Positions 6,575 to 50,047 are shown, numbered from the stretch's first letter. The stretch is 64,000 nt of DNA from an uncultured bacterium (GCA_903857865.1 CAIOGO010000006.1:66511-130510); one strand, 5' to 3'. Notes: generated by a model not told the origin, from the sequence alone. Made by a program: numbers and translations.

Positions 6575-9500
6575 TCATCGACGGATGAACACAGTTCCCT
6601 TGCCGCTGAACGTGTCCGTCCCATCCGTCGCCGTCATCAGGTAGATGTAGGCACCGTTGGCGAGGGGCTGACAGTCGCTCGCTGTGCCGTCCCAAACGAT
6701 CTGCGTCACGTTTCCCAACTCGTTCGCCCATACCAGATGACCTGCGAGGTCGTAGACCTCGACCGACATCACCGAGGCAATGCCGGTTCCGTTGTATCCA
6801 AACGTTACAGCGCCGGCCGACGGACTCGGCCCCGCGTAGAAGCTCGTGACATCCAGCTTGCTCGCGACGATCAGGATCGTGTCACTCGACGTGTCCGTAG
6901 GATCCGTGGGATCCTTGTACGTCGCCGTGATCGTGGCCCCTGCAGCCAAGTTGAGATCGAGGCCCGTGGTCACGAAGGCATTCTCGGCCCACCCTGCGGG
7001 GTGGGCTAGAGAGAATGCTTGTCCGTCGATCGTGACGGCATTCTCTAGCAGGGATGCGCCGGCGTGGGACGGGTCGACGACCTTCACGTACACGAGATCC
7101 GTGTCCGTGTAGCTTGTCACCGCCGCCCCCGTCACGTCCACGAACGCCGTCGTCGACGCCTGGGACGGAGGAGTGCCGCCACCGCCAATGGCCACCTTAA
7201 TCTGGATTATCGCCGAGTCGCTGTGGTTCGACGGATCCTGGTAGAAGGCCACCACCGTATCGCCCGGCAGCGCGCCAAGCGTCGGCACGCACGTGTACAC
7301 GTTCACGAGATCGACGCAGATGACCGACACGAAGTCTCCCGTGGTGACGCCCGTCTCCAGGAGGTCGAGCGCCGCCCAGAAACCGCTCCGCGGGTTCAAG
7401 ACGTAGATCTTCGCGTTGTCGTTGTCGTCGGTGGCTGGCGTTGTGTCGAAGATGTTCGTATCCCCTAGCAGGGAGTTCACAAAGTGGCCGTAGGTGTCGT
7501 CGGGTTCCGGGCAGTGCCAGTAGTTGTACGCCTCGGGCCCGAACGGCAGATTCTGTCCACCGTCCCAGAACCCGTCAATGCGCTCCCGACGGAGGATGTC
7601 CTCGTTCTGATCCGGGTCCACCACTTCGATGAACACGCAGTCCAAGTTCACGTACCCGTTCACGCGATTGCCCTGCCGGTCGAGGAAGTACATCGTGACC
7701 GACTGGCCGTTATAGACCTGCGTGTCGCCAATCGACATCAGGTCGAACGACACGTCATTCCCCACGCGGACACGATCGATCCGCGGTCCCGAGTAGGCCG
7801 TGCTCGTGTCGGAATCGCCTAGGCCGATCATGCCTTGGAGGCCGTCCACGTAATCCACGTCGTTGTATCGGACGTAGATGTCGTCCTCGTTGAACGCCTC
7901 GAGCTTCCAGTTGTCGAGCACAAGCTGGTATCCACCCATCAAGCCGGCAACTCCCACGCCGAGAGCATCCCAGACCGGCAGGAGCTCCATTCCCGCGTTC
8001 GAGAAGAAGACCGGCGAGTTCGAGCTCGTCTCGTCGAGCGGCCAGAACTCCCCGTCGTCCTCATCGTGCGGATCGCAGATATGAACCACGACCTGCTCCG
8101 GGCAGCACGAGTCGACGTTCGCGTTCGCGTCGATCACCTGCACGTACACCGGGTCGCGACCGATCCAGAAGAGCTTCTTGTCCTGGCGCGTCGCATCCGT
8201 GAACGACACGATCGAGTGCATCTTTTCCTCGATGTACGCCGCGTCCAGCTTGAAGTCGTCTTCGTCGTTCGGGTCAAGGTAGTAGGCCACGAGCACGTCG
8301 CGAACGTCCAGGCTGTCGAACCCAAGATCGACGAGGAGCGAGTTCAGGTTCAGCTGGAACACGCCCGTATTCGGACCCGTCTCCTGCGCGTAGAACGAGA
8401 CGGCCGTCACCCCGTTCGCGCTTGCCGTGTCAAACAGGGTCCCGTGATAGACAGGATTGAAGACTCCAGCCTTCGGGTATTGGATGTAGTAGCGCCCATC
8501 CTTCGCTCCCAGCGTGCCGTAGTCGTTCTTCTCGGAATTGTAGATGTTGAACCAGCGAATCGGACGGTTGGTATAGTCGGTGGTCGGTGGAAGCGCCGGA
8601 TCCTGCGCCACCGTGTAGTTCCCAGCGATGCCGCCCGTGCGCTTCAGCATACAGAAGTTGTTGGGGCTGTCGCCCGTCGTCAAGGCTGGGTCGTCAGCGG
8701 AGTTCGTCGGGTTCCATGACCCTGGGTTCACCAGGATGAATACCGGGACAACCTCCACCTCGTTGCAGTTCAAGTTTTCGTCTGCATCGGTGACGATGAT
8801 CGTCGCCGCTTCGTTCCCATCCTTGTAGATCTCTCGGTCCCACGCGATCGTCGCCTCGGTGTCGATGACCTTCATCATCGCCGTCGCGACGTCTGTGTCG
8901 TCGTTCGGGTCCTGATACATCCCAATGAGCGTGTCCATGTTCTCGAACCGGCCGACCAGCCAAGAAGCGGGAGAAGCCGTGTCGCGATTCCCATTCAGGC
9001 TGGAGGGAAGGACATACGCCGATAGCGGCAGGTCGATGTACCCGGACCCAAACGCTGCGGAGTTCCCTGTGACCGCGCCGACCCAGTGGAGCCAATCGCC
9101 GTCCGCGTTGCTCCCACCCTTCGTCTCGTTGTGCAGATCGGCGTAGAAGTAGTTGCCCCACTTGAACTCATCCGGCGGCGACGACGGCGTGTCGACGACG
9201 TGCGTTCCCTTCCACGGCTCGCCGGAGGCGAAGCTCTCGCGGGTCCCAATCTGAAACGCGTGGCTGCTGACGAAGAGCCCCGTGTCGGCGCCCGTCTCTT
9301 CGAGATAGTCTTCGGCAAGCGACCCGGGATTGCCAGGGAAGTGCCCCTTGTACGGGACGTAGTCTTCGTCGTCGTACGGATCGGACCAGCCCTTTCCAGT
9401 TAGGTCAGCGTAGCTCTTCCAGACGATGTAGGCGCCCGTCTTCGGGTCCATGATCTTGACGTCGGTCCAGATCTTGTCGCGCACGTCGCAGTCGATGTTC

Positions 9501-9673
9501 TCGTCCGTGTCGTGAATGACAATCCAAACCGAGTTCCCTTCCTGGACGTTCGTCACTCGGTTCTGCCCGTTCTTGTCGGACGCGAAGTACATCTCCGCGT
9601 TCGAGGCAGCCAGACCGAGCGACGCAATGACCAGGAAGAGGACGCCTACCCACACTGCCCTACGCATCCTCAT
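6575..9673 (-). CDS. Large secreted protein, paralog A, with a T9SS-type (FlgD-Ig-like) C-terminal sorting domain
   Basis: Start ATG at 9673 (MRMRRAVWVGVLFLVIASLGLAASNA signal peptide, GGGAGG Shine-Dalgarno). The C-terminus reads ...SVEVYDLAGHLVWANE...WDGT...NGAYIYLMTATDG...GKGTVFIRR, which matches the Por-secretion C-terminal domain pattern. About 60 % identical to the 10974..14057 protein. Confidence 0.8.
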   Translation of the reverse strand: MRMRRAVWVGVLFLVIASLGLAASNAEMYFASDKNGQNRVTNVQEGNSVWIVIHDTDENIDCDVRDKIWTDVKIMDPKTGAYIVWKSYADLTGKGWSDPYDDEDYVPYKGHFPGNPGSLAEDYLEETGADTGLFVSSHAFQIGTRESFASGEPWKGTHVVDTPSSPPDEFKWGNYFYADLHNETKGGSNADGDWLHWVGAVTGNSAAFGSGYIDLPLSAYVLPSSLNGNRDTASPASWLVGRFENMDTLIGMYQDPNDDTDVATAMMKVIDTEATIAWDREIYKDGNEAATIIVTDADENLNCNEVEVVPVFILVNPGSWNPTNSADDPALTTGDSPNNFCMLKRTGGIAGNYTVAQDPALPPTTDYTNRPIRWFNIYNSEKNDYGTLGAKDGRYYIQYPKAGVFNPVYHGTLFDTASANGVTAVSFYAQETGPNTGVFQLNLNSLLVDLGFDSLDVRDVLVAYYLDPNDEDDFKLDAAYIEEKMHSIVSFTDATRQDKKLFWIGRDPVYVQVIDANANVDSCCPEQVVVHICDPHDEDDGEFWPLDETSSNSPVFFSNAGMELLPVWDALGVGVAGLMGGYQLVLDNWKLEAFNEDDIYVRYNDVDYVDGLQGMIGLGDSDTSTAYSGPRIDRVRVGNDVSFDLMSIGDTQVYNGQSVTMYFLDRQGNRVNGYVNLDCVFIEVVDPDQNEDILRRERIDGFWDGGQNLPFGPEAYNYWHCPEPDDTYGHFVNSLLGDTNIFDTTPATDDNDNAKIYVLNPRSGFWAALDLLETGVTTGDFVSVICVDLVNVYTCVPTLGALPGDTVVAFYQDPSNHSDSAIIQIKVAIGGGGTPPSQASTTAFVDVTGAAVTSYTDTDLVYVKVVDPSHAGASLLENAVTIDGQAFSLAHPAGWAENAFVTTGLDLNLAAGATITATYKDPTDPTDTSSDTILIVASKLDVTSFYAGPSPSAGAVTFGYNGTGIASVMSVEVYDLAGHLVWANELGNVTQIVWDGTASDCQPLANGAYIYLMTATDGTDTFSGKGTVFIRR

Positions 9674-9872
9674 CGCAACCTCCCGCGTTTCAGAGCAAGC
9701 CATCACCGGGGCCGAGCCCCGTCCGTACCCTGCTCGACCGTCACCACCATGTCGATTCAATCATCGTCAGGATAGGCGGCGGCGAGGCCGCCGTCCAGTC
9801 AACGCGCACGGCGCCGCGCCCCGCGCGCGGCGCGCGGCGCCCCGCACGTCCGTGTCCACGAGTGCGTACAAA

Positions 9873-10973: not shown

Positions 10974-13900
10974 TTACCGGTTGATGAACAACGTTCCCTT
11001 ACCATTGAACGTGTCCGTCCCGTCCGTCGCCGTCACTAGGTAGATGTACGCGCCGTTCGCCACAAACGCGCCGCCGTCGTCCTTACCGTTCCAGACGATC
11101 TTCGTCACGTTCGCCAGCTCGCTCGCCCACACCACGTGCCCTGCGAGGTCGTATACCGTCACCGACATCACCGAAGCAATGCCGCTTCCCTTGTATGCAA
11201 ACGTCACATCGCCAGCCGACGGGTTCGGCCCTGCGTAGAAGCTCGTAACATCAAGCTTGCTCGCGATGATCGTGATCGTGTCGGTCGACGTATCGGTCGG
11301 ATCCGTCGGATCCTTGTACGTCGCCGTGATCGACGTTCCCGCCGTCAGGTTGAGATCCAGTCCGGTCGTGATGAACGTGTCCGTTGGCGCACCGGCGAGC
11401 GGCGCAAGAGCGTACGTTACCGTACCGATCGTCACCGCACCCGCCAGCGTCGTCGCCCCGGCGTGAGACGGGTCGACGACCTTCACGTACACCAGGTCCG
11501 CGTCCGTGTAGTTCACCACAGCGGCGCCCGTTGCATTCGTGAATGTCGTCGTCGACGACTGCGACGCAGGCGTAGTGCCGCCACCAATGCCCACCTTAAC
11601 CTGGATCATGGCCGAATCCGAGTGGTTCGACGGATCCTGGTAGTAGGCCACAACCGTATCGCCCGGCAGCGCGCCGAGCGTCGGCACGCACGTGTACACG
11701 TTCACCAGGTCGACGCAGATGACCGACACGAAGTCTCCCGTGGTCACGCCCGTCTCAAGAAGATCGAGCGCCGCCCACTGGCCACTCCGCGGGTTCAACA
11801 CGTACACCTTGGGATACGAGTACTGATAACTGTTGTACTGAGCGTCTCTGGCGCTAGCGTCAGAGAGTCTGCTGAAGATGTTCGTGTCGCCGAACAGCGC
11901 GTTCAGCGGGTTGATGTACGTCCGAGTCCAGTCGCAGACGAACCCGTTCAAGGCCCGGGGTCCGAACGGCATGTTCTGGTTCTTGTCCCAGAACCCGTCG
12001 ATGCGCTCGCGGCGCAGCGTGTCCTCGTTCTGATCCGCGTCCACCACTTCGATGAACACGCAGTCCGAGTTCACGTAGCCAGACACGCGGTTGCCCTGCC
12101 GGTCGAGGAAGTACATGGTGACCGACTGGCCGTTGTACACCTGCGTGTCCGCGATCTCCATCAGGTCGAACGACACATCGTTCGCCACGCGGATCCGATC
12201 GATCTTCGGCGGGAACGCGGTGCTGGCCGTGCTCGCAAACGTTTCGTCGCCGAGACCGCCCATGCCTTCAAGGCCGGTCACATAGTACACGTCGTTGTAC
12301 TGCACGTAGACGTGGTCCTCGTTGAACACCTCGAGCTTCCAGTTGTCAAGATTCAGCTGGTAGCCGCCCGTCTTGGACGGCTCATTCCCGATGCCCATTG
12401 CGTCCCACACCGGCAGAAGTTCCGTCCCGGCGTTGGAGAAGAAGACGGGCGAGTTCGAACTCGTCTCGTCGAGGATCAACCACTCGGCGTCGTCCCACTC
12501 GTGCGGATCGCAGATCGAGACAACAACCTGCTCCGGGCAGCACGGGTCAACGTTCGCGTTCGCGTCGATGACCTGCACGTACACCGGGTCGCGGCCGATC
12601 CAGAAGAGCTCCTTGTCCTGGCGCGTCGCGTCGGTGAACGACGTGATCGAGTGCTGCTTCTCCTCGATGTACGACACGCCGACTTGGAAGTCGTCCTCGT
12701 CGTTCGGGTCAATGTAGTAGGCCACGAGCACGTCGCGCACGCTCAGACTGTAGAACCCAAGATCCACGAGGATCGAGTTCAGGTTGAGCTGGAACACGCC
12801 CGTGTTCACGCCCGTCTCCTGCGCGTAGAACATCACTTCCGTGACGCCGTTCGTAGCGACGGTGTCGAAGAACGTGACGTTGCTCTGCGACTGGACCGGG
12901 TACTGCATGTAGTAGTTCCCAGCCATCGCAGGCCTTGTCGGGAACGTCAGGCCGCTGTTGTAGATGTTGTACCAGGCAATCGGCGCCGGCTTTGGCGCCG
13001 CAGTTGTCACAACTCGCTCGGTACCGTCGAGCTCAACGCCGCCGGTGCGCTTGAGGGCGCAGAACCCGGTCGGGCTGTCCCAATCACTCGCGGTCTGCAC
13101 GGGGTTCCACGACTCGGGGTTCACGATGATGAACACCGGCACGTACTCGATCTCGTTGCAGTTCAAGTTCTCGTCCGCATCGGTCACCGTGATGGTGGCC
13201 GACCCGTTCGCGTCCTTGTAGATTTGCTGGTCCCACGTGACCGACCCCTTCGTGTCGATGATCTTCATCATCGCCGTCGCGACGTCGGTCGGATCGTTCT
13301 GGTCAACGACCATGCCGATCAGCGTGTCCATGTTCTCGAACCGGCCGTGCTCCTTCGTGACCCATGACGGAAGGGTGGTCAGAGCAGTAGGAAGAGCCAC
13401 GGTCTGTTTGCCACGGATTCCGTTCACGTACTCCCACTGTCCGAAGTTGGTGTTGTTTCGAGTGCTGTCGAACGGGCCATGGAAACCGTTCTTCGCCGAG
13501 AGGACTCCCGCGAAGTCGAGGCCGACCCAGTGAGTGTTCAACTCATCCACTCGGTAGTCGAGCCGCGTGCCGATCTGCATCGGCTGGCTGCTCACGAACA
13601 GACCCGTGTCGGCGCCCGTCTCCTCAAAGTAGACGATGTCCGCGGGTACGTCCTTCCCGGGATTGTGCCCAGGCTGGTAGTGGCCGTACGCGGCCACATC
13701 ATTGCCAGCTCTCGCCAGAGCAAACGCAAAGTTGATGTACGCGCCGGTCTTGGGATCGAACACCTTCGCGTCCGTCCAGAACTTGTCGCGCACGTCGCAG
13801 TCAATGTTCTCGTCCGGATCGTGTACGACCATCCAGACCTGGCTTCCTTCTTGCACATTCGTAACCCTTGTCTGGCCGTTCTTGTCGCTCGAGAAATACA

Positions 13901-14057
13901 GCTCCGAGTTCGTCGCGGCGGCAGAAAGGGCGAAGAACGCCATAACCAGAATCGTTACGACGCTCAGTACTCCCAGTCTCTTCTTCAACGTCCTACCTCC
14001 TTCGTAGTTCGAAGATCTCGCTTGTGTTCTTTCGCTTCGTTCATCTTGTTCGGTCAT
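10974..14057 (-). CDS. Large secreted protein, paralog B, with a T9SS-type C-terminal sorting domain
   Basis: Start ATG at 14057 (MTEQDE...LKKRLGVLSVVTILVMAFFALSAAATN signal peptide). The C-terminus reads ...SVTVYDLAGHVVWASE...WNGKDDGG..NGAYIYLVTATDG...GKGTLFINR. Long blocks are near-identical to paralog A, for example FYAQETG.NTGVFQLNLNS.LVDLGF... Confidence 0.8.
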   Translation of the reverse strand: MTEQDERSERTQARSSNYEGGRTLKKRLGVLSVVTILVMAFFALSAAATNSELYFSSDKNGQTRVTNVQEGSQVWMVVHDPDENIDCDVRDKFWTDAKVFDPKTGAYINFAFALARAGNDVAAYGHYQPGHNPGKDVPADIVYFEETGADTGLFVSSQPMQIGTRLDYRVDELNTHWVGLDFAGVLSAKNGFHGPFDSTRNNTNFGQWEYVNGIRGKQTVALPTALTTLPSWVTKEHGRFENMDTLIGMVVDQNDPTDVATAMMKIIDTKGSVTWDQQIYKDANGSATITVTDADENLNCNEIEYVPVFIIVNPESWNPVQTASDWDSPTGFCALKRTGGVELDGTERVVTTAAPKPAPIAWYNIYNSGLTFPTRPAMAGNYYMQYPVQSQSNVTFFDTVATNGVTEVMFYAQETGVNTGVFQLNLNSILVDLGFYSLSVRDVLVAYYIDPNDEDDFQVGVSYIEEKQHSITSFTDATRQDKELFWIGRDPVYVQVIDANANVDPCCPEQVVVSICDPHEWDDAEWLILDETSSNSPVFFSNAGTELLPVWDAMGIGNEPSKTGGYQLNLDNWKLEVFNEDHVYVQYNDVYYVTGLEGMGGLGDETFASTASTAFPPKIDRIRVANDVSFDLMEIADTQVYNGQSVTMYFLDRQGNRVSGYVNSDCVFIEVVDADQNEDTLRRERIDGFWDKNQNMPFGPRALNGFVCDWTRTYINPLNALFGDTNIFSRLSDASARDAQYNSYQYSYPKVYVLNPRSGQWAALDLLETGVTTGDFVSVICVDLVNVYTCVPTLGALPGDTVVAYYQDPSNHSDSAMIQVKVGIGGGTTPASQSSTTTFTNATGAAVVNYTDADLVYVKVVDPSHAGATTLAGAVTIGTVTYALAPLAGAPTDTFITTGLDLNLTAGTSITATYKDPTDPTDTSTDTITIIASKLDVTSFYAGPNPSAGDVTFAYKGSGIASVMSVTVYDLAGHVVWASELANVTKIVWNGKDDGGAFVANGAYIYLVTATDGTDTFNGKGTLFINR

Positions 14058-14619
14058 CGGAGGCACCCCCTGCACTCTTCCTTCACGCCTCCACCCCGCT
14101 TGTAGGGACACACGGTTCCACACGTTCCGCCCCACCACCTCCAGAGGGAAGCTCTATGGTCGGCTTCCGCTCGGCCTCGCCGAGTCCAAGGAACAAACGC
14201 TGCCCAGTGTAGCAGCAACGCCAAGTCGCATTCTCAATGACCAGCGGAAGTGGTTGCCCACCCCCCCATTTCGTGAGTCGCTCGATCTTACAGCACGCCC
14301 GCAACGTCTGTCAAGCGCGATCAGGACTGAGCCATCTCCCCATCGTACAGCACCCGGCATGGCGGGCGTCAACGTCTTCCGTGCCGCGTGGGATGAGCAC
14401 AATCCAGGACTCACCATGCGTGAACCACCTCCCGGTCGGTGTTTCTTTCCAGATCGCCCCAGGCTACAGCGTCTCGGGCCCCTCAACCTGTACGGTGGGC
14501 GCTCGCGACCTGCCTCCGGTCCGCCTCGGTGGGGACACGCGTCCGTGATCCGAACTACGCGGTCCGCGGCCGGCAGGGCGACGCCCTCGCCTTGACACGA
14601 TCGGCAAGGAGTCGATATC

Positions 14620-20593: not shown

Positions 20594-20622
20594 GGGATCG
20601 CACTTCGGCGATTGCCGAGAAG

Positions 20623-20652
20623 GCATGCGGCGCAGCCAGAGCTGCGCCGCAT
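20623..20652. terminator. Bidirectional terminator between the PKD gene and csp
   Basis: CATGCGGCGCAGC-CAGA-GCTGCGCCGCATG, a perfect 13-bp stem. Confidence 0.55.
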
Positions 20653-20677
20653 GACCGTTTCCTACGTAAGTCCCTGA

Positions 20678-20887
20678 CTACAGGACGGTGACGTCCTGTG
20701 CTTGGGGACCCTTCTCTCCTGACACGACGACAAACTCCACCTTCTTGCCCTCCTCGAGCGAGCGATAGCCCTCGCCGCGGATCGAGCTGAAGTGAACGAA
20801 CACGTCATCGCCGCTTTCGCGCGAGATGAAGCCGAAACCCTTGGTGTCGTTGAACCACTTGACCGTTCCGGTTTCGCGTTCTGCCAC
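20678..20887 (-). CDS. Cold-shock protein (CspA family)
   Basis: 69 aa. [36 protein letters not shown]... carries the RNP1 and RNP2 motifs KGFGFI and VFVHF. Confidence 0.9.
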
Positions 20888-21020
20888 GAGTACCCCTCCT
20901 TACGTGCTGGCTGATTCATCGAGGCAGAGCATTCGAGTGTGACCAGATCCCTGTACTCCTGCAAAGCGCTGCACGATGCCAACAAACGCGCAATCTATCC
21001 GCGGCTCGGGAGGTTGTCAA

Positions 21021-21445
21021 GGCGCGGCGCGCTCTCGTCAACAGAGCGCGTAAGCATCCTCTCGTCAAACCCGGATGCGGCGCGCTTTCGTTAGCAGAGC
21101 GCGTTGGCATCCTCGATTCAGGCCCGGGGCGCGGCGCGCTCTTGTCAACAGAGCGCGTTAGCACCCTCTCCTTGGGCCCGGGGCGCGGCGCGCTTTCGTT
21201 AACAGAGCGCGTTAGCACCCTCTTCGTGGAACCGGGCGCGGCGCGCTCTTGTCAACAGAGCGCGTTAGCACCCTCTCCTTGGGCCCGGGGCGCGGCGCGC
21301 TTTCGTTAACAGAGCGCGTAAGCATCCTCTCGCCAAACCCGGATGCGGCGCGCTCTCCTTAGAACCGCGCGTAAGCATCCTCTCGTCAAACCCGGATGCA
21401 GTCCGTTCTCTCGTTAGACCCGAACGGGCCGCGCTCTCCTGAGAG
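21021..21445. repeat. Tandem array of about 7.5 units of 51-56 bp, each containing the palindrome CGCGCTCT-(C/T)GT(C/T)AAC-AGAGCGCG
   Basis: Units start at 21021, 21076, 21127, 21181, 21234, 21288, 21344 and 21397. Units 3 and 5 are identical and others differ by a few substitutions. The array lies between the GRE-activase 3' end and the csp upstream region. Confidence 0.85.
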
Positions 21446-21457
21446 CCACCCGCGGTG

Positions 21458-22429
21458 CTAGAAGGGCGTCTCCGCGCCCACGTAGCACTGAAGCCCGGCA
21501 TCGGAGAAGAGCCGCCGATGGCCCGCCATCTGGTCGCCGGTCGGAGGCTGGGCCTGCGCATGCGCGTACTCCAACCCAAGCTGCGCGTACTTTGACTCAG
21601 CCATTCGGTGGAAGGGTAGAAGGTTCACCTCGATGAGCTGGAGCTCGGCCAGGAATCGAGCTGTGGCACGAAGGTTCTCCGGTGAATCGTTGAACCCCGG
21701 AACGATCGGGATCCGAACGACCACGCGTGTCTCACGCGACGACTGCGCCAAGTTCACAAGGTTGGCAAGGATCTGCTCGTTCCCGACGCCGGTGCCGCAG
21801 TGATGAGCCGCACCGTCCATGTGCTTCAAGTCGACGAACAGCCAGTCTGTGCGACGCGCGACGTCCAATACGAGCTGCTGGTCGGCGTGTGCAGAGGTCT
21901 CGACGACCGTGTGGATGTACGCCTCACGACAGGCGTCGAGTGCCGCCAGCAGGAACTCCGGTTGACTCGTCGGCTCGCCCCCGCTGAAGGTGACGCCGCC
22001 CTCCGGCCCCCAGTAGTCGCGATCCCGTCCCAGGGTTCGCATCAACTCGCGCACGGACATCCGGCGCCCCGACACCTCCAGCGCGCTGTTCAAACAAGCA
22101 GAGACGCAGCTTTGCGCATCGCACGTCGCGCAGAGCGTTCGATCGAAGATGGGGGGAAGCGGTGCGGCGGGGTCGACTCGGATCGCACCATACGGACAGG
22201 CAGCGACGCACGGAGTGCCGTCGGACCGGCAGCGGGACGCTCGGACCATCAGCCGTGGTCTCGGGAGGAGCCCCTCCGGATTGGCACACCATGAGCAACG
22301 CAACGGGCACCCGCTCATGAAGACTGTGGTCCGGCACCCCGGACCGTCGTGCACCGAGTGTGCCTGGATGTCGAAGATCAATCCCTCCACGGGCGCGCTC
22401 AGCCGTTCCTCCATTCGAACCACTCGCAC
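21458..22429 (-). CDS. Glycyl-radical-enzyme activating enzyme (radical SAM, with an extra ferredoxin-like Cys cluster domain)
   Basis: Radical-SAM motif CPLRCSWC. GHDGPGCRTTVF N-terminus. Additional clusters CRSDGTPCVAACPYG and CATCDAQSCVSAC. This architecture is typical of activases for non-PFL glycyl-radical enzymes. Confidence 0.85.
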   Translation of the reverse strand: MRVVRMEERLSAPVEGLIFDIQAHSVHDGPGCRTTVFMSGCPLRCSWCANPEGLLPRPRLMVRASRCRSDGTPCVAACPYGAIRVDPAAPLPPIFDRTLCATCDAQSCVSACLNSALEVSGRRMSVRELMRTLGRDRDYWGPEGGVTFSGGEPTSQPEFLLAALDACREAYIHTVVETSAHADQQLVLDVARRTDWLFVDLKHMDGAAHHCGTGVGNEQILANLVNLAQSSRETRVVVRIPIVPGFNDSPENLRATARFLAELQLIEVNLLPFHRMAESKYAQLGLEYAHAQAQPPTGDQMAGHRRLFSDAGLQCYVGAETPF

Positions 22430-22668
22430 GTCACGGCAACGAGGTCCGGGTACGTCATCGGCCGGTCCGGCGTGGCCGAGCAGGCGCCCGTGTACTCTTC
22501 TTCACTCGGCGAGTACAGCCTGCACTCGGCGCACCGCGGCAGGCGGTCGAACGAGGGGCAGGCGTCGTCGTCTGCGCGGACGGTCCCTTTCGTCACGTGG
22601 CAGATTCCCTTGACCACATCGATGGGGGCGTAGTTCCGGCAGTACATGTGCCTAGACGAGGCGCTCAC
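22399..22668 (-). CDS. Cys-rich small protein, candidate HpdC-like Fe-S small subunit of the glycyl-radical enzyme
   Basis: 89 aa. GTG start at 22668 overlaps the large-subunit stop as GTGA. A GGGGGTG Shine-Dalgarno is present. Potential ligands are spaced H7-x2-C10-x12-C23-x13-C37-x8-C46-x2-C49-x13-C63-x17-C81. It sits between the large subunit and the activase, the same arrangement as hpdB-hpdC-hpdA. Confidence 0.5.
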
Positions 22669-25381
22669 GGTTGCACCCCCTGGTACTCCGTGCGGGCGAT
22701 GATTTCATCCTGAATCGGCTTTCCAATCTCCACCCAGTACTGCGTGAACCCGGCCACGCGAACAAGGAGGTCGCGATACTCCTCCGGGTGCTCCTGAGCG
22801 TGCTTCAGGATCCTCGAGTCCACCACGTTGTACTGGATGTGAAAGCCGCCCTTACGCATGTAGGACCGCGTCAATTCGAGCAGCTTCTTGGTTCCCGCGC
22901 GACCGTGGATTGCACTCGGGTGGATCTTCAGATTCAGCTGGGAGTTCTGGGACTGGGCGTGATCCCAACACGTCGCCGAGGAGAAGAGGGCGTACGGTCC
23001 TTGCCGGTCAGTTCCAGGGTAAGCGGACATGGAGGCATCGGCGAACGTTGTGCCGGCCAGGCGCCCGTCGGGCGCGGCCATCGTGACGGCTCCCATCGGC
23101 GCGTGCGTGGAGACCGAAATCTGGCAAGCATAGTAAGGCCGCGCGTTGAGCGACTCGTACTCCCTGCACTTGGCGCAGAACCAGTCTTCCCACTCCTTGA
23201 GGATGTCGTCGACGTACGGATTGTCGTTTCCGTACTTCGGGGCGGTGAGGCACTCGACGTGCGTCCGGTCGTGCTCGGTGCTCTCCCCGCGCTTCTCCTG
23301 GGACGAGAGCGAGAAGGAACCCACCTCGTCGGCCGTCTTGAAGCCGAAGTTGTCCGCGAGGGCCTTCCGCAGTCCTGCGAGGGAGATGAATCCCCTGTCG
23401 TAGACGAGGGACTTCAGCGCAGCGAGGCTGTTGATCAGGTTGATCGTCCCGCACGTCTCGACGTTGTGGGTCGCGTTGTACCGGTATCCGAGTTCGTTGA
23501 TGAGATGCCCGGACTCGAGGCAGTCCGGCTTGAGGAGCGAGTTGAAGATGGCCATGTTGTTCTTGCGCCAGACATCGTGCTGGATGTTGTTTGCGAGCGC
23601 GAGCACCTCAACGGCCCTTGCGAAGTACGCCTTGACCTGATCGAACACTTCCTCGTACGAGGCGAGCGTCCGGCCGTGCGGGGGGAACACGCGGAGCCCC
23701 GTCCGCTGATCGGTGCCGTCGAAGAGAACGAGCTCCAGGATCTTGGGAAGGGAGAGGAAGTGAACGCCGACGCTCGTTGGTTGTCCCGAACCGCCTGGGA
23801 TCCAGTACGACTGGCCGTTAAGTACAACGGGCATCCAGGAACACGGAGACGTCTCGAGGCAACCGCCGATGGCGATCGCCCGCGCTTCTTCCAGATCCAT
23901 GCCCTCGGGACCGTATTGGTCCATGAGGAATTCGATCCCCGTCCGATTGTTCACGACGGCCGGATAGCCCGTCCCCGTCTTGATGCACTCCATGGCCTTG
24001 AGGAGGAACGACTCCGGCAGCTTGTCGTCGTAGAGGAGAGTCAGGGTGGGCTGTGTCGATGCGCAGGTCATCGCCGCTTTGATGATCAGCTCCTCGAGAC
24101 GATTGTTCGCCGGGCTCCCGTTTCGATCGAGACCACCGATGCTGAGGTTGTTGAACGTGTTCCCCGACAGGACGCCCCCGACGACGCCCATCGAAGCGAA
24201 GCAGTCGAGGCAGGTGTACTTGATGCGGAGGCACTCGAACAGCTCGAGGGCCTTCTGCTCGTCGAGGCGGCCGGCCGCGATGTCCTGCTCGTACCATGGC
24301 CAGAGGATCTGCCCGAGGCGGCCGGGTGACAGTCCGGAGATGACGTCCTCATTCAGCACGGCAACGTGCACTGTCCAACTGAGTTGCAGAGCCTCGCGGA
24401 ACGTCCGCGGTGGATGATGGGCGATCCACTCGAGGCACTCGGCGGTCTCGGCGTACTCAGTGCCTGCGCCGACTCCCTTTCCATCGCCTCGAGTCGGCGC
24501 GCCTCCTGTGCGTAGTTCTGAATCCACGCCTGGATTCCCCGAAGGACGTGACTCACCGCTTCGTAGTTGTAGAGGCGGTTCATGCCGGTGAGCCCGTCGC
24601 CGTCGGGGTGCCCCGCCACCTCGCCCTTCTTCCGCTCCGCCATCGAGATCAGTTCGTCGAACCCGAACTGCAGCGGGTAGTAGTAGTTGACGACCTCGCG
24701 CCCCTGCGGCAGCGTGTAGCCCGAATCGAACATGCACGTGACGGACTTCATCAGGGCTTCTTTGATCTCGTACCCGGGAACCATCTGCTCGTACTTGTGC
24801 CCCACATCGTCAACGGATCGGTCCTCCCAGGCGTGGGCCACTCGGAGCATCGCCGGAACTTCCTCTTTTCGGATCCCGAATTTCCCTGCGATCGACACGA
24901 CGGGACCGAAGCTCTTCGTCACGTTGCCCCCACCCGACCCGAAGGTAGAAACCGCGTCCGCGCTCGCGCTGCCTCGCGCCAGCGCCTCCTGATAGAGCTG
25001 GTTCTCCGCCGCCATATAGTAGCCCTCAGACAGCCACGGCATGGGGAAGGAGCCGCGGTAGTGGTAGGTCTTCCCCATGACGAGGAGTTCGCCGGGGAAG
25101 ATCGTCGGCGTCAGGTGCCGAAACGCGGACTCGAGGGCCAGGGCTCGGCGGACGACGGGGACCTCGTTGTCAAGACGCATGTAGGTCCGGGTGTACCAGT
25201 GCGGGAACTCGTTCGTCGCGGAGGAAAGGGCGTCGTAGTACAGGTCGCGCAAGCGCTGGACGCGGGGGAACGGTTTGCCGACGACTTCGCGCGGCATGGG
25301 CTCCGACGGCGGCTTGCCCATCGCTTGGTACTCCAAGTGGGCGTCTGCCTGAGCAAGGATGTCCGTCAGTTTGCGCGGCAT
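22665..25381 (-). CDS. Glycyl-radical enzyme large subunit (HpdB-like, 1,2-eliminase/decarboxylase clade), with an apparent frameshift near 24465-24475
   Basis: Two overlapping ORFs (24353..25381 and 22665..24737) together span about 905 aa. Motifs: [16 protein letters not shown], a Cys loop GGCLETSPC, and glycyl-radical motif [11 protein letters not shown] near the C-terminus. The frames switch within ...EARRLEAME / [11 protein letters not shown]... at a GGAAAGGGAG run. Confidence 0.8.
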
Positions 25382-25520
25382 GGTTCCTCCTCAGTTCTAC
25401 GGCGCCGTGATGCACGGCATTGCGGTTGCTGTCCGCGTAGCTGCGATCGAAGCCGCGCAGGCGCTTTCGGTTGCAGCATGGCCTAGCGAGAGTCTACCGA
25501 CCAGGTGCGCAGATGGCCAA

Positions 25521-25762
25521 CGCGCGCTCCTTTGTCAGAACCGAGCGCGTAGGCGCGCTCCTTTGTCAGAACCGAGCGCGTAGGCGCGCTCCTTTGTCAG
25601 AACCGAGCGCGTTTCGCTGGACAGGGCGCGTTCTCTCGTCAACAGAGCGCGGGCGCGTTCTCTCGATAGAACCGAACGCGGCGCGCCTACGTAGAAGAGC
25701 GCGTGGTGGACGGGACGCGTTCTCTCCACAGAACCGAACGCGTTCCGCTGGACCGAGCGTCG
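25521..25762. repeat. Second tandem array of the same palindromic repeat family (3 x 31-bp GCGCGCTCCTTTGTCAGAACCGAGCGCGTAG, then about four diverged units)
   Basis: It contains GGCGCGTTCTCTCGTCAACAGAGCGCG, the same core as the 21-kb array, and TAGAACCGAACGCG variants. It lies in the divergent region between the GRE operon and the MATE gene. Confidence 0.8.
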
Positions 25763-25785
25763 CGAGCCGAGGACTATTCGCCGGG

Positions 25786-27150
25786 ATGAGGGAGGGCAAC
25801 GTGGGAGAGTCCGGCAGCAGGCTGACGACCGGGCAGGTGTTCCGCACGTGGTGGCCGCTCGCCGCAAGCTGGGTCCTCATGGCGCTCGAGGGGCCGCTGC
25901 AGACCATCTTCGTCGCCCGCTTGGCCGACCCGAAGATCCACCTCGCCGCGTTCGGCAGCGTCGTCCTTCCCATCGCCATGCTCATCGAGGCGCCGATCGT
26001 CATGCTCTTGTCGGCTTCGACGACGCTCTGCGTCGACCGCGACGCCTATCGCAAGATCCGCCGGTTCATGCACGGGTTGTCCGCCGCTCTGACGGCGCTT
26101 CACGCCATCATCGCGCTCACGCCTCTGTACACGCTTCTCGTCGTCAGCGTCCTCCACGCGCCACCCGAGATCGTCGAGCCCGGCCGCATCGGGTTGATCC
26201 TCACGATCCCATGGACCTGGTCTATCGCTTACCGCCGCTTCAATCAGGGCGTCCTCATCCGCTTCGGACGCTCCCTGACCGTGGGAGTCGGCACGTTCAT
26301 CAGGCTCTGCGCCAACGGCATTGTGCTCACCCTTGGGTTCACCCTGCTCAAGGTCCCCGGCACGACGCTCGCCGCCCTCGCGATCACCGCCGGCGTGGTC
26401 AGCGAGGCCGCGTATGTCGGTCTGTGCGTCCGCCCGGTCGTACGCGACCGACTCCCGCAGGTGTCCGAGGCGCAACCTCTGAGCTACCACGCCTTCCTCC
26501 GCTTCTACGTGCCGCTCTCACTGACATCGCTTGTCCTGATGGGTATACGGCCTGTGCTGAGCGCTGCCGTTGGCCGCATGCCGAATGCCCTCGACTCGCT
26601 TGCAGTGCTTCCCGTGATCAACGGGCTCGTCTTCCTCTTCCGCAGCGTCGGGGCGGCGTACAACGAGGTCGTCATCGCCCACCTCGATCGCCCTGGATCG
26701 TCGATCGCCCTGGCGCGGTTCGCCCGTTGGCTCGCCGTCGCCACGACGCTTGGCCTCGTCACGATCACCGTGACGCCGCTGTCGGGAGTGTGGTTCGGCT
26801 CCATCTCCGGACTCGACGGCTCGCTGATGGACTTGGCGCGATCCAGCCTATGGCTCACGCTCCTCCTCCCCGGCCTCGCGGCAGCCCAGAGCTTCCTGCA
26901 GGGGATCATCCTGCACAGCAGGCGCACGCGAAGCATCACGGAAGCGGTCTTTGTCTACCTCGTGGCGAGCGTGGTCGTGCTGTGGGTCGGCGTGGCGTGG
27001 GGAGGGACGAGCGGCGCGTTCGTCGCTCTTGCCTCGCTGGCCGTCGGAGAGATCTTTCGCACGGCGTGGTTCGTCTGGCGGAGCCGCGAGCCGCGGCGCG
27101 TCCTGCGCGAGCGGGACCGCGGCGAACAGTCGGCTACCGCGGAGGCGTAG
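25786..27150 (+). CDS. MATE-family efflux transporter
   Basis: About 455 aa with roughly 12 predicted hydrophobic segments. N-terminal VFRTWWPLAASWVLMALEGPLQTIFVARL resembles NorM/MATE. ATG at 25786 is the first start after the repeat array. Confidence 0.7.
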   Translation: MREGNVGESGSRLTTGQVFRTWWPLAASWVLMALEGPLQTIFVARLADPKIHLAAFGSVVLPIAMLIEAPIVMLLSASTTLCVDRDAYRKIRRFMHGLSAALTALHAIIALTPLYTLLVVSVLHAPPEIVEPGRIGLILTIPWTWSIAYRRFNQGVLIRFGRSLTVGVGTFIRLCANGIVLTLGFTLLKVPGTTLAALAITAGVVSEAAYVGLCVRPVVRDRLPQVSEAQPLSYHAFLRFYVPLSLTSLVLMGIRPVLSAAVGRMPNALDSLAVLPVINGLVFLFRSVGAAYNEVVIAHLDRPGSSIALARFARWLAVATTLGLVTITVTPLSGVWFGSISGLDGSLMDLARSSLWLTLLLPGLAAAQSFLQGIILHSRRTRSITEAVFVYLVASVVVLWVGVAWGGTSGAFVALASLAVGEIFRTAWFVWRSREPRRVLRERDRGEQSATAEA

Positions 27151-49335: not shown

Positions 49336-49460
49336 GGGCGTGACACCTCCCCTCGTCTTCTTGGGGTCCGCGCATCTTCTCACGCGAACATCGGTTCGAG
49401 CGCGAGCCGCCCGCGCGGGACGCTGGCATTGTAACAACACACTGTGTCGCGGTCAATGGC

Positions 49461-49770
49461 TGAGCGCGGCGGGACACATCATGCCGCGCTCAGCTAGGGA
49501 GTTCCGACTGCGTCGGAACTCTAGGCCTGTCGCCGGGACACACCGTAGCTCACTCAGCTAGGGAGTTCCCGCGGTGCAGGAACTCCTGGCACCATCAACG
49601 GGACGCACCACGCCGCGCTCAGCTAGGGGGTTCCGACGCAGTCGGAACTCCAGGCATCTGTCATCGTGACGCACGTTGTCCCACTCAGCGGCTAAACGAG
49701 ACGGGACGGACTCTGTCTCGTTCAGCTAGAGAGTTCCCGCTACACGAGAACTCCAGGCCTGTCGCCGTGT
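49461..49770. repeat. Tandem array of four ~65-bp units, each with a GGAGTTCC-(7-10 nt)-GGAACTCC hairpin and conserved flanks GGGAC...CTCAGCTAGG / CAGGC(C)TGTCGCCG
   Basis: Units start at 49471, 49535, 49600 and 49703; unit 3 carries a 38-nt insert. The loops of units 1 and 3 (GACTGCGTC and GACGCAGTC) are exact reverse complements. An extra hairpin CTGAGCGCGGC...GCCGCGCTCAG sits at 49461-49493. Confidence 0.7.
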
Positions 49771-50047
49771 CAGACGCTGTCTTGCTCTTCCGGCTCTCCA
49801 CCTTGGCGATCTTGGCGCTCTCCGCGTGATTGCGTGTGTTGGACTCGCGGCTGATTCCCTCGCGCCAAGGGCGCCAAGGAAGGCATGTCACAACGCGTGT
49901 CTGATCCCCCACCTGTCTCGGGAGTCCCCGCCGCACGGAGACTCCCGCGCTGCTCGCCGGGACTCATCTTGTCTGACTTACCCCGTCGCCGCGAATTACG
50001 CACTCGGTGCCGCGGACCCGGCGACTCCACGTTCGAGGAATCGAAGG

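Follow-up and report, generated by a model that had tools for sequence, protein, structure and literature searches.

Hairpin-repeat arrays at the edges of a variable slot next to a cold-shock gene in Candidatus Bipolaricaulota

What are the two arrays of short palindromes that bracket a glycyl-radical enzyme (GRE) operon in a 64-kb stretch of DNA from an uncultured bacterium (CAIOGO010000006.1:66511-130510; we call this whole stretch the window)? Array 1 (21021-21445, - strand) lies between the stop codon of the gene for the glycyl-radical activating enzyme (activase) and the -35 hexamer of a cold-shock protein gene, csp, and array 2 (25521-25762, - strand) lies between the -35 of the GRE promoter and the start of a divergent membrane-protein gene. 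A sequence-only reading of the window had offered iterated regulator-binding sites, boundaries of a mobile metabolic cassette or structured RNA as candidate roles. We consider it reasonably probable that the arrays are local tandem expansions of lineage-specific small intergenic hairpin repeats, akin to the repetitive extragenic palindromes (REPs) with their bacterial interspersed mosaic elements (BIMEs) and to NIMEs, the intergenic mosaic elements of Neisseria, in Candidatus Bipolaricaulota. The idea of a device peculiar to the glycyl-radical operon is for the most part unsupported. The arrays mark the exact edges of a slot whose content differs among relatives.

Two arrays of one hairpin family

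Both arrays are real and far beyond chance, as judged by Tandem Repeats Finder (TRF), by a covariance model and by shuffled sequence. TRF called array 1 as 7.0 copies with a period of 53 bp and 79% matches (21021-21395) and as 6.3 copies with a period of 54 bp (21021-21357), plus a higher-order period of 107 bp. Array 2 was called as 2.9 copies of a 31-bp unit that are 100% identical (25522-25612), and degenerate copies were called at 25624-25686 as well. The core proposed to be common to the two arrays is indeed shared: the 24-mer GCGCGCTCTCGTCAACAGAGCGCG, with up to three mismatches allowed, occurs seven times, six of them in array 1 and one in array 2 (at 25628), and is absent from shuffles. 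The covariance model (R1), built on an alignment of 60 distinct units (A2), gives 18 matches in the window at E<0.3, all on the - strand, with 12 in 21026-21429 and six in 25522-25743; over the remainder of the 64 kb, outside both arrays, it has no significant match.

The repeat had been described as a single 54-bp unit folding into a hairpin with an 8-bp stem, a description that needs correction. The 54-bp unit of array 1 comprises two hairpins, one of type A and one of type B, and about 16 hairpins follow one another head-to-tail, the alternation of the two types showing up as the 54-bp and 107-bp periods. Type A is CGCGCT(CT)-...-(AG)AGCGCG, with an 8-bp stem in only three copies and 6 bp in the rest, while an example of type B is GCATCC-tctcgtcaaaccc-GGATGC, with a 13-nt loop. 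Array 2 contains six hairpin units (the three perfect 31-bp copies and diverged ones) with stems such as CGCGCTC, CGCGTTC and ACGCGTTC, together with the module CGCGCTCTTCTACGTAGGCGCGC and two short degenerate motifs. The design common to both arrays is a unit of ~29 nt with a GC-rich, variable stem of 5-8 bp and a 13-nt loop, the consensus of which is GGTTCTGACGAGA on the gene strand (TCTCGTCAGAACC on the + strand). Within an array the units are co-oriented, head-to-tail. The segments between A hairpins are repeated B hairpins and there are no unique spacers, so the arrays are not CRISPR-like, in agreement with the sequence-only reading.

The stems covary. In A2 double changes are found at four of the six stem pairs (75 cells, compared with 22 in shuffles), and 90% of cells are paired, compared with 35-64% when the partners are slid. 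The A2 units had been chosen for pairing and for loop similarity, and the analysis was therefore repeated by structure alone on 12 orthologous arrays. There the maximal hairpins show a sharp peak at a 13-nt loop (70 of 155), and the information content of the loop positions is 0.43-1.36 bits, compared with ~0.1 bit in control hairpins taken from coding DNA. An inner helix of 3 bp (UCU/AGA; 84% paired, with one-sided changes only) is possible and would convert the loop into a 3-nt 5' bulge and a tetraloop. The proposal of a structured RNA is supported at the level of the hairpin, with its covarying stems, and does not extend to a known RNA family: over the window only a tRNA reached the Rfam gathering score, and between 20500 and 26000, at E up to 5, the sole match was a weak one to the cspA thermoregulator in the csp 5' untranslated region (5'UTR).

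Several known elements were also compared with the units by eye, against their consensus sequences. The Gram-positive SOS (Cheo) box, the FNR box, the IHF site and the PyrR loop, and likewise the CsrA GGA motif, the ANTAR dual hairpin, the hammerhead CUGANGA core and the tRNA T-loop, either fitted a subset of the units or had the wrong geometry.

Slot content, copy number and dispersal

The arrays are set in a conserved neighbourhood, CoaE - membrane protein - slot - csp - PKD gene, and the slot exists in three states. In the first, it is occupied by a 4-hydroxyphenylacetate decarboxylase (HPAD) operon (window, L001-3, L010, L055 and L070-72), with arrays on both sides in most cases. In the second, it holds a sodium:solute symporter of the SSF family (L028, L047, L051 and L062-69), with arrays confined to the interval from the symporter stop codon to the csp -35. 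In the third, it is empty (L056-61), and here there is no array, just one degenerate proto-unit (gcgtccGGTCCTGCGAAAGggaaag) immediately before the -35. The presence or absence of the cassette in relatives had been put forward as a check. The homology of the empty-slot contigs L056 and L057 to the window ends at 21021 and 25784, so the indel is exactly array 1, operon and array 2 (21021-25784, the replaceable block). The symporter-bearing L028 is 87-89% identical to the window on both flanks and the GRE-bearing L055 is 85% identical; therefore slot content does not follow flank similarity. The HPAD operon was never seen outside the csp slot.

Copy number shifts by whole units between near-identical strains. 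Where the activase and csp proteins are 100% identical, array 1 is shorter by exactly 107 bp (2 x 54) in L050, L052 and a 278-kb contig. Across relatives there are 0, 2 (L051), 8 (L050 and L052) or ~16 (window) hairpins upstream of csp. The units upstream of the GRE operon range from 0 to 8: L055 and L072, with arrays on both sides, have 8, L010 has about one, and L070 and L071 have the operon and no array 2, with TTGG(C/T)C-18-TAGACT retained upstream of the GRE gene. In many assemblies the contig breaks off within the array. Because of the three identical 31-bp copies and the 107-bp step, we suggest that the arrays may grow and shrink through replication slippage or unequal recombination.

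Array 1 begins 12 nt beyond the activase stop codon (21458-21460) in the window, and 12 nt past the stop codon of the upstream co-directional gene in the GRE and symporter states alike. On L047 an array of ~12 units (1244-1656) follows the symporter gene and is itself followed by a terminator-like hairpin, with no csp gene or csp promoter, which indicates that the array travels with the 3' end of the upstream gene and not with csp.

On the other side, each array stops 1-6 nt upstream of a conserved -35. The predicted csp promoter (TTGACA-17-TAGATT, 20992-21020, - strand; 10/12 matches in a promoter scan) is kept whichever of the three states the slot is in. The last hairpin of array 1 is directly followed by its -35, and the array ends at this hexamer in every array-bearing relative. 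The putative GRE-operon promoter (TTGGCC-18-TAGACT, 25491-25520, - strand) was read from the sequence and falls below the scan threshold; the first unit of array 2 is 1 nt from its -35 (the promoter running from 25520 to 25491), and its hexamers and spacing are kept in L055, L072 and L070 (in L070 as TTGGTC-18-TAGACT) amid diverging surrounding sequence. Array 2 begins 140 nt upstream of the GRE start codon (25381), and not immediately 5' of the large subunit as first described. At other loci the units are not beside promoter-like sites. Since this is so, and since both promoters exist without arrays, we read the arrays as filling all of the tolerated spacer up to the first essential element, and not as operators. 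Nor is the idea of iterated regulator sites supported by copy number, which varies from 0 to ~16 among close relatives with the same promoters, array 2 being missing in L070 and L071 and the empty-slot csp having no array. Iterated -35 elements were rejected too: some loops contain TTGACG, but CTGCCG, CTAACG and TTAAGA are found just as often, and there is no -10 downstream.

The repeat family extends beyond this operon. When JGI metagenome contigs were scanned for a pair of adjacent loop motifs, the stems being left unspecified, 38 loci were returned. About 18 of them are high-GC contigs in which true hairpins show this design with other stems (TGCGCTC, GCGTTC, GCACTC, CCGCTC). Four of these ~18 contigs represent the csp slot in relatives and the remainder are unrelated contexts. 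Metagenome contigs of Bipolaricaulota contain units at no fewer than eight unrelated loci. One context is the spacer that separates a molybdenum oxidoreductase gene from IorA (the indolepyruvate:ferredoxin oxidoreductase alpha subunit); others are the regions upstream of DUF885 genes and of a secreted protein, the vicinity of PIN/RHH, NYN and HEPN genes (toxin-antitoxin loci) and that of a different GRE operon. For the neighbouring IorA, the closest named relatives are Ca. Bipolaricaulota. The sequence-only reading had itself held that a spread of the family with no association to the operon would make it a generic repeat, and this is largely what these loci show.

Outside the csp slot the units belong to larger intergenic mosaic elements (150-450 bp) that contain other palindromic modules as well. 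These include a GTAG-tagged REP-like hairpin, GTAG-CGTCGCAC...GTGCGACG, inside which two or three units are found in some cases; the inverse of this hairpin, CGTCGGAG...CTCCGACGCTAC; hairpins of the form CTAGGGAG...CTCC; and CGCGCTCCTCTATGAAGGCGCGC, which is present in array 2 of the window as CGCGCTCTTCTACGTAGGCGCGC. GTAG-tagged palindromes (GTAGCGTCGCAC...GTGCGACG) were observed in the mosaic elements at L075 9598-9950, L012 10642-10926 and L013 360-663. The GTAG tag suggests that a REP/RAYT-type system (RAYT, REP-associated tyrosine transposase) exists in the phylum Bipolaricaulota. The oxidoreductase gene and IorA are 458 bp apart in L075 (9542-10001), where the spacer has units, and 66 bp apart in L076 (9934-10001), where it has none, and so the mosaic elements are dispensable insertions away from the GRE locus too. 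The window also holds, at 49437-49960, a second and different intergenic hairpin-repeat array, with units like CTAGGGAGTTCCGAC...GTCGGAACTCC, variable stems and a period of ~65 bp; its CTAGGGAG...CTCC module recurs in the mosaic elements of L013, L015, L029 and L075.

Searches in other collections yielded little. Among GTDB-representative genomes the A-type 23-mer had no match, and a generic two-unit pattern had three, in low-GC genomes and without stems, which we take as chance; in recognisable form, the source species is therefore absent from these representatives. A scan of viral contigs gave two matches, one in the low-GC contig L039 without stems and the other in L073; a phage link is so far unsupported. 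A literature search combining Bipolaricaulota or Acetothermia with repeats returned no description of a repeat family among the ten best-ranked matches.

Known repeat families, mechanism and rival explanations

With REPs and BIMEs, such as E. coli REP325, the units share a small size, GC-rich palindromic structure, intergenic location, clustering in arrays, mosaic organisation and variability between strains. They also adjoin the 3' end of an upstream ORF between co-directional genes, and GTAG-tagged palindromes co-occur with window-type units in related loci (PMC3733652). The differences concern the unit itself. In contrast to classical REPs, it has neither a GTAG nor a CGTC tag and no RAYT was found in the neighbourhoods listed; its loop is long (13 nt), fixed in length and conserved, with the variation in the stem. 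Set against the definition of tagged REPs (Di Nocera et al. 2013), the ~29-nt unit with its 5-8 bp stem falls in the 20-40 bp size range of the palindrome, but no constant tetranucleotide flanks the A2 units. In the window GTAGCGTCGCAC is no commoner than chance, and the tag is found only on other modules of the mosaic elements (L012, L013, L016 and L075). Likewise, the mosaic contains several types of module as BIMEs do, but the alternating or inverted orientation of BIMEs is not seen, as the units run head-to-tail with all 18 on one strand. The GTAG-23 REPs of Thermomicrobium roseum, which bear a GTAG tag and sit within CCGSSCC...GGSSCGG palindromes, are unlike the window units, although they provide a precedent for REP-type repeats in blocks at few loci of a high-GC, deep-branching lineage (PMC3733652).

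What might such arrays do? We read the hairpin repeats as dispensable and slippage-prone elements that probably serve at the 3' end of a gene as terminator, stabiliser or insulator and that are incidentally a substrate for recombination. Transcripts of the upstream gene, the activase here and the symporter in relatives, would carry array 1 as their 3' tail. As an element of the 3' untranslated region array 1 could terminate or attenuate read-through into csp, thereby insulating the csp promoter, and could block 3' exonucleases. Between unidirectional genes, REPs are located near the 3' end of the first ORF (PMC3733652), and E. coli REP325 is both terminator and stabiliser (bioRxiv 10.64898/2026.03.23.713779), and by analogy a 3'-end role of array 1 would parallel both cases. 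The fixed-length, conserved and asymmetric loop may be the recognition site of some host or mobilising protein; such conservation points to a sequence-specific partner, either a mobilising single-stranded DNA (ssDNA) enzyme or an RNA- or DNA-binding protein. The repeats may finally promote, or at least tolerate, the recombination that swaps the content of the slot.

Several observations weigh against this picture of locally expanded REP-like repeats with a 3'-end role. In the lineage of the window the units are found in the csp slot only, over ~100 kb of distinct sequence (the window and the non-overlapping parts of L055, L056 and L062), and at only one locus each in the 64-kb window and the 22.7-kb L055. 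Genome-wide dispersal is shown only for other Bipolaricaulota contigs; no synteny of the dispersed loci with the window was found, and these loci are not assignable to the genome of the window. Across ~0.3 Mb of related loci, neither a RAYT nor another transposase came to light (no PF01797 in the neighbourhood listings). The evidence on which strand folds is equivocal: the two strands fold with equal stability (z of -6.0 and -5.8), the excess of G.T over A.C pairs (27 vs 6) is dominated by one inherited position in the A units, and the sense orientation relative to neighbouring genes at seven of nine informative loci, with antisense units at L015 (4132-4218) and L029, is suggestive only. As to termination, the promoter and terminator scan found no terminator-like site in either array and no U-tract after any of these GC-rich hairpins, as an intrinsic terminator would have. 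The 13-nt conserved loop is more than a simple terminator or stabiliser needs. Array 2, which lies in a divergent spacer, cannot be a 3' element at all.

An alternative that takes the slot as its starting point is that the hairpins are recombination sites for cassette exchange, similar to integron attC sites or to the dRS3 repeats of NIMEs. The bulged hairpin would then be the target of a single-strand or site-specific recombinase, which would insert or swap gene cassettes, such as the GRE operon and the symporter, next to csp and build up the arrays at the junctions. This would account for the three slot states between conserved flanks, for an indel block ending exactly at the outer array edges, for the degenerate proto-unit retained at the empty junction and for slot content that is independent of flank similarity, as L028 and L055 illustrate; the same idea has been proposed for NIME arrays (PMC1797815). 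However, the GRE operon is never seen away from the csp slot, the symporter has no units on its 5' side, L070 and L071 carry the operon without array 2, there is no integrase or transposase gene in any neighbourhood listing, and homologous recombination of the ordinary kind, acting in the conserved flanks, is an equally good explanation of the swaps. We therefore consider exchange at the hairpins unlikely. Of the mobile-cassette boundaries suggested by the sequence-only reading, what remains is the block that is exactly missing in empty-slot relatives and the symporter that replaces the operon elsewhere; the constant location of the operon, the one-sided array of the symporter state and the lack of a nearby recombinase gene do not fit, and the idea survives in weak form. 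A more novel version of it, an attC- or dRS3-like system of Bipolaricaulota in which some ssDNA recombinase or HUH enzyme uses the bulged, loop-conserved hairpins to capture and exchange promoter-bearing cassettes (the HPAD operon, the symporter) at a hotspot next to csp, appears quite improbable.

The two systems invoked here resemble the locus to different degrees. Integron attC sites share with the units an imperfect hairpin with asymmetric unpaired bases, located at cassette junctions. However, the unit consensus has no R''/L''-L'/R' boxes (RYYYAAC...GTTRRRY), no intI or other integrase gene is present in the neighbourhoods, there are many units per junction and the cassettes carry their own promoters. 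NIMEs (arrays of dRS3 and RS repeats) and the minimal mobile elements share dynamic arrays of short palindromes that flank genes variable between strains, with alternative cassettes between conserved flanking genes (PMC1797815). By analogy, a neisserial NIME array combined with a minimal mobile element is the closest functional parallel for the locus as a whole. The parallel is one of organisation: the sequence and the phylum are unrelated, dRS3 has conserved ends and a variable centre, the opposite of the window unit, and no phage or recombinase link is shown for the window arrays.

A further possibility is that the hairpins act as protein-binding RNA elements, resembling iron-responsive elements or a Csr sponge; the GRE, symporter and csp transcripts would then make up a post-transcriptional regulon or carry a titrating array. 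The fixed, conserved 13-nt loop on covarying stems is what such an element could look like, all csp-slot units in all relatives are in gene-sense orientation, and units stand beside diverse genes. We nevertheless give this explanation little credence, in view of a copy number that is unconstrained between 0 and 16, the units at L015 4132-4218 and L029 that are antisense to both neighbours, the placement of array 1 upstream of the csp promoter and its absence in empty-slot relatives, the lack of an Rfam family match and the lack of any known candidate binding protein. Least credible of all are iterated double-stranded DNA operator or enhancer sites, through which a transcription factor would control the csp and GRE promoters: both arrays do end 1-6 nt upstream of a -35 hexamer and TTGAC(G/A)-like sequence occurs within units, but the promoters are conserved in relatives with zero units, units elsewhere are away from promoter-like sites, and the stem halves vary yet stay complementary, which a sequence-specific dimeric factor would not tolerate.

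Genes of the locus and significance

The csp gene (20678-20887, - strand) encodes a protein of 69 aa (Pfam CSD, 1.8e-29). The weak cspA-thermoregulator match mentioned above covers the 5'UTR and the gene (20622-20923, - strand) and scores 29 bits against a gathering score of 78; the predicted 5'UTR of ~100 nt is highly conserved among relatives. The operon, also on the - strand, consists of three genes. The activase (21458-22414, 318 aa) has the Pfam domains Radical_SAM and Fer4_12, and the exact protein is present on 10 contigs. It is preceded by the HPAD small (gamma) subunit (22399-22668; Pfam 4HPAD_g_N and HPIP_like on the orthologous gene) and by the GRE large subunit of the 4-hydroxyphenylacetate-decarboxylase type (22665-25381), in which the PFL-like Pfam domain is split over two open reading frames. 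An intact large-subunit orthologue of 905 aa matches NF033715, 4-hydroxyphenylacetate decarboxylase, with 1507 bits. Alignment to L001, L010 and L055 places a 1-bp deletion between 24463 and 24464 in the window, and the resulting frameshift gives the two open reading frames 24353-25381 and 22665-24737; either the gene is a pseudogene, or the assembly is in error here.

The left flank of the slot is formed by the divergent gene at 25786-27150 (+ strand), the translation of which is a multi-pass membrane protein of 454 aa. It had been labelled MATE, a name that is unsupported, as there is no Pfam or NCBIfam family match (at E up to 0.1 and 0.01, respectively); its orthologues are found in all three slot states. 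Elsewhere in the window, two neighbouring genes of ~1060 aa (6575-9760 and 10974-14138, - strand) are ~80% identical over their full length and are a tandem duplication of ~4.4 kb.

Metagenome-assembled genomes, and contigs from metagenomes of stratified freshwater lakes, encode the exact activase and csp proteins. At NCBI, members of the GRE and csp clusters (90% identity) bear the names Candidatus Bipolaricaulota or Bipolaricaulis. The family is an intergenic palindromic mosaic repeat, a known type of element, in an uncultured phylum. Its fixed, conserved 13-nt loop on a covarying stem is unlike classical REPs and suggests some binding partner. In practice the repeat is a strain-typing marker of the variable-number tandem-repeat kind, and it breaks metagenome assemblies at the csp slot. 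For the biology of these bacteria, the arrays mark a slot at which the HPAD operon, for the p-cresol-forming fermentation of aromatic amino acids, is gained, lost or replaced, and the turnover of this slot bears on the variation of metabolic traits among close populations.

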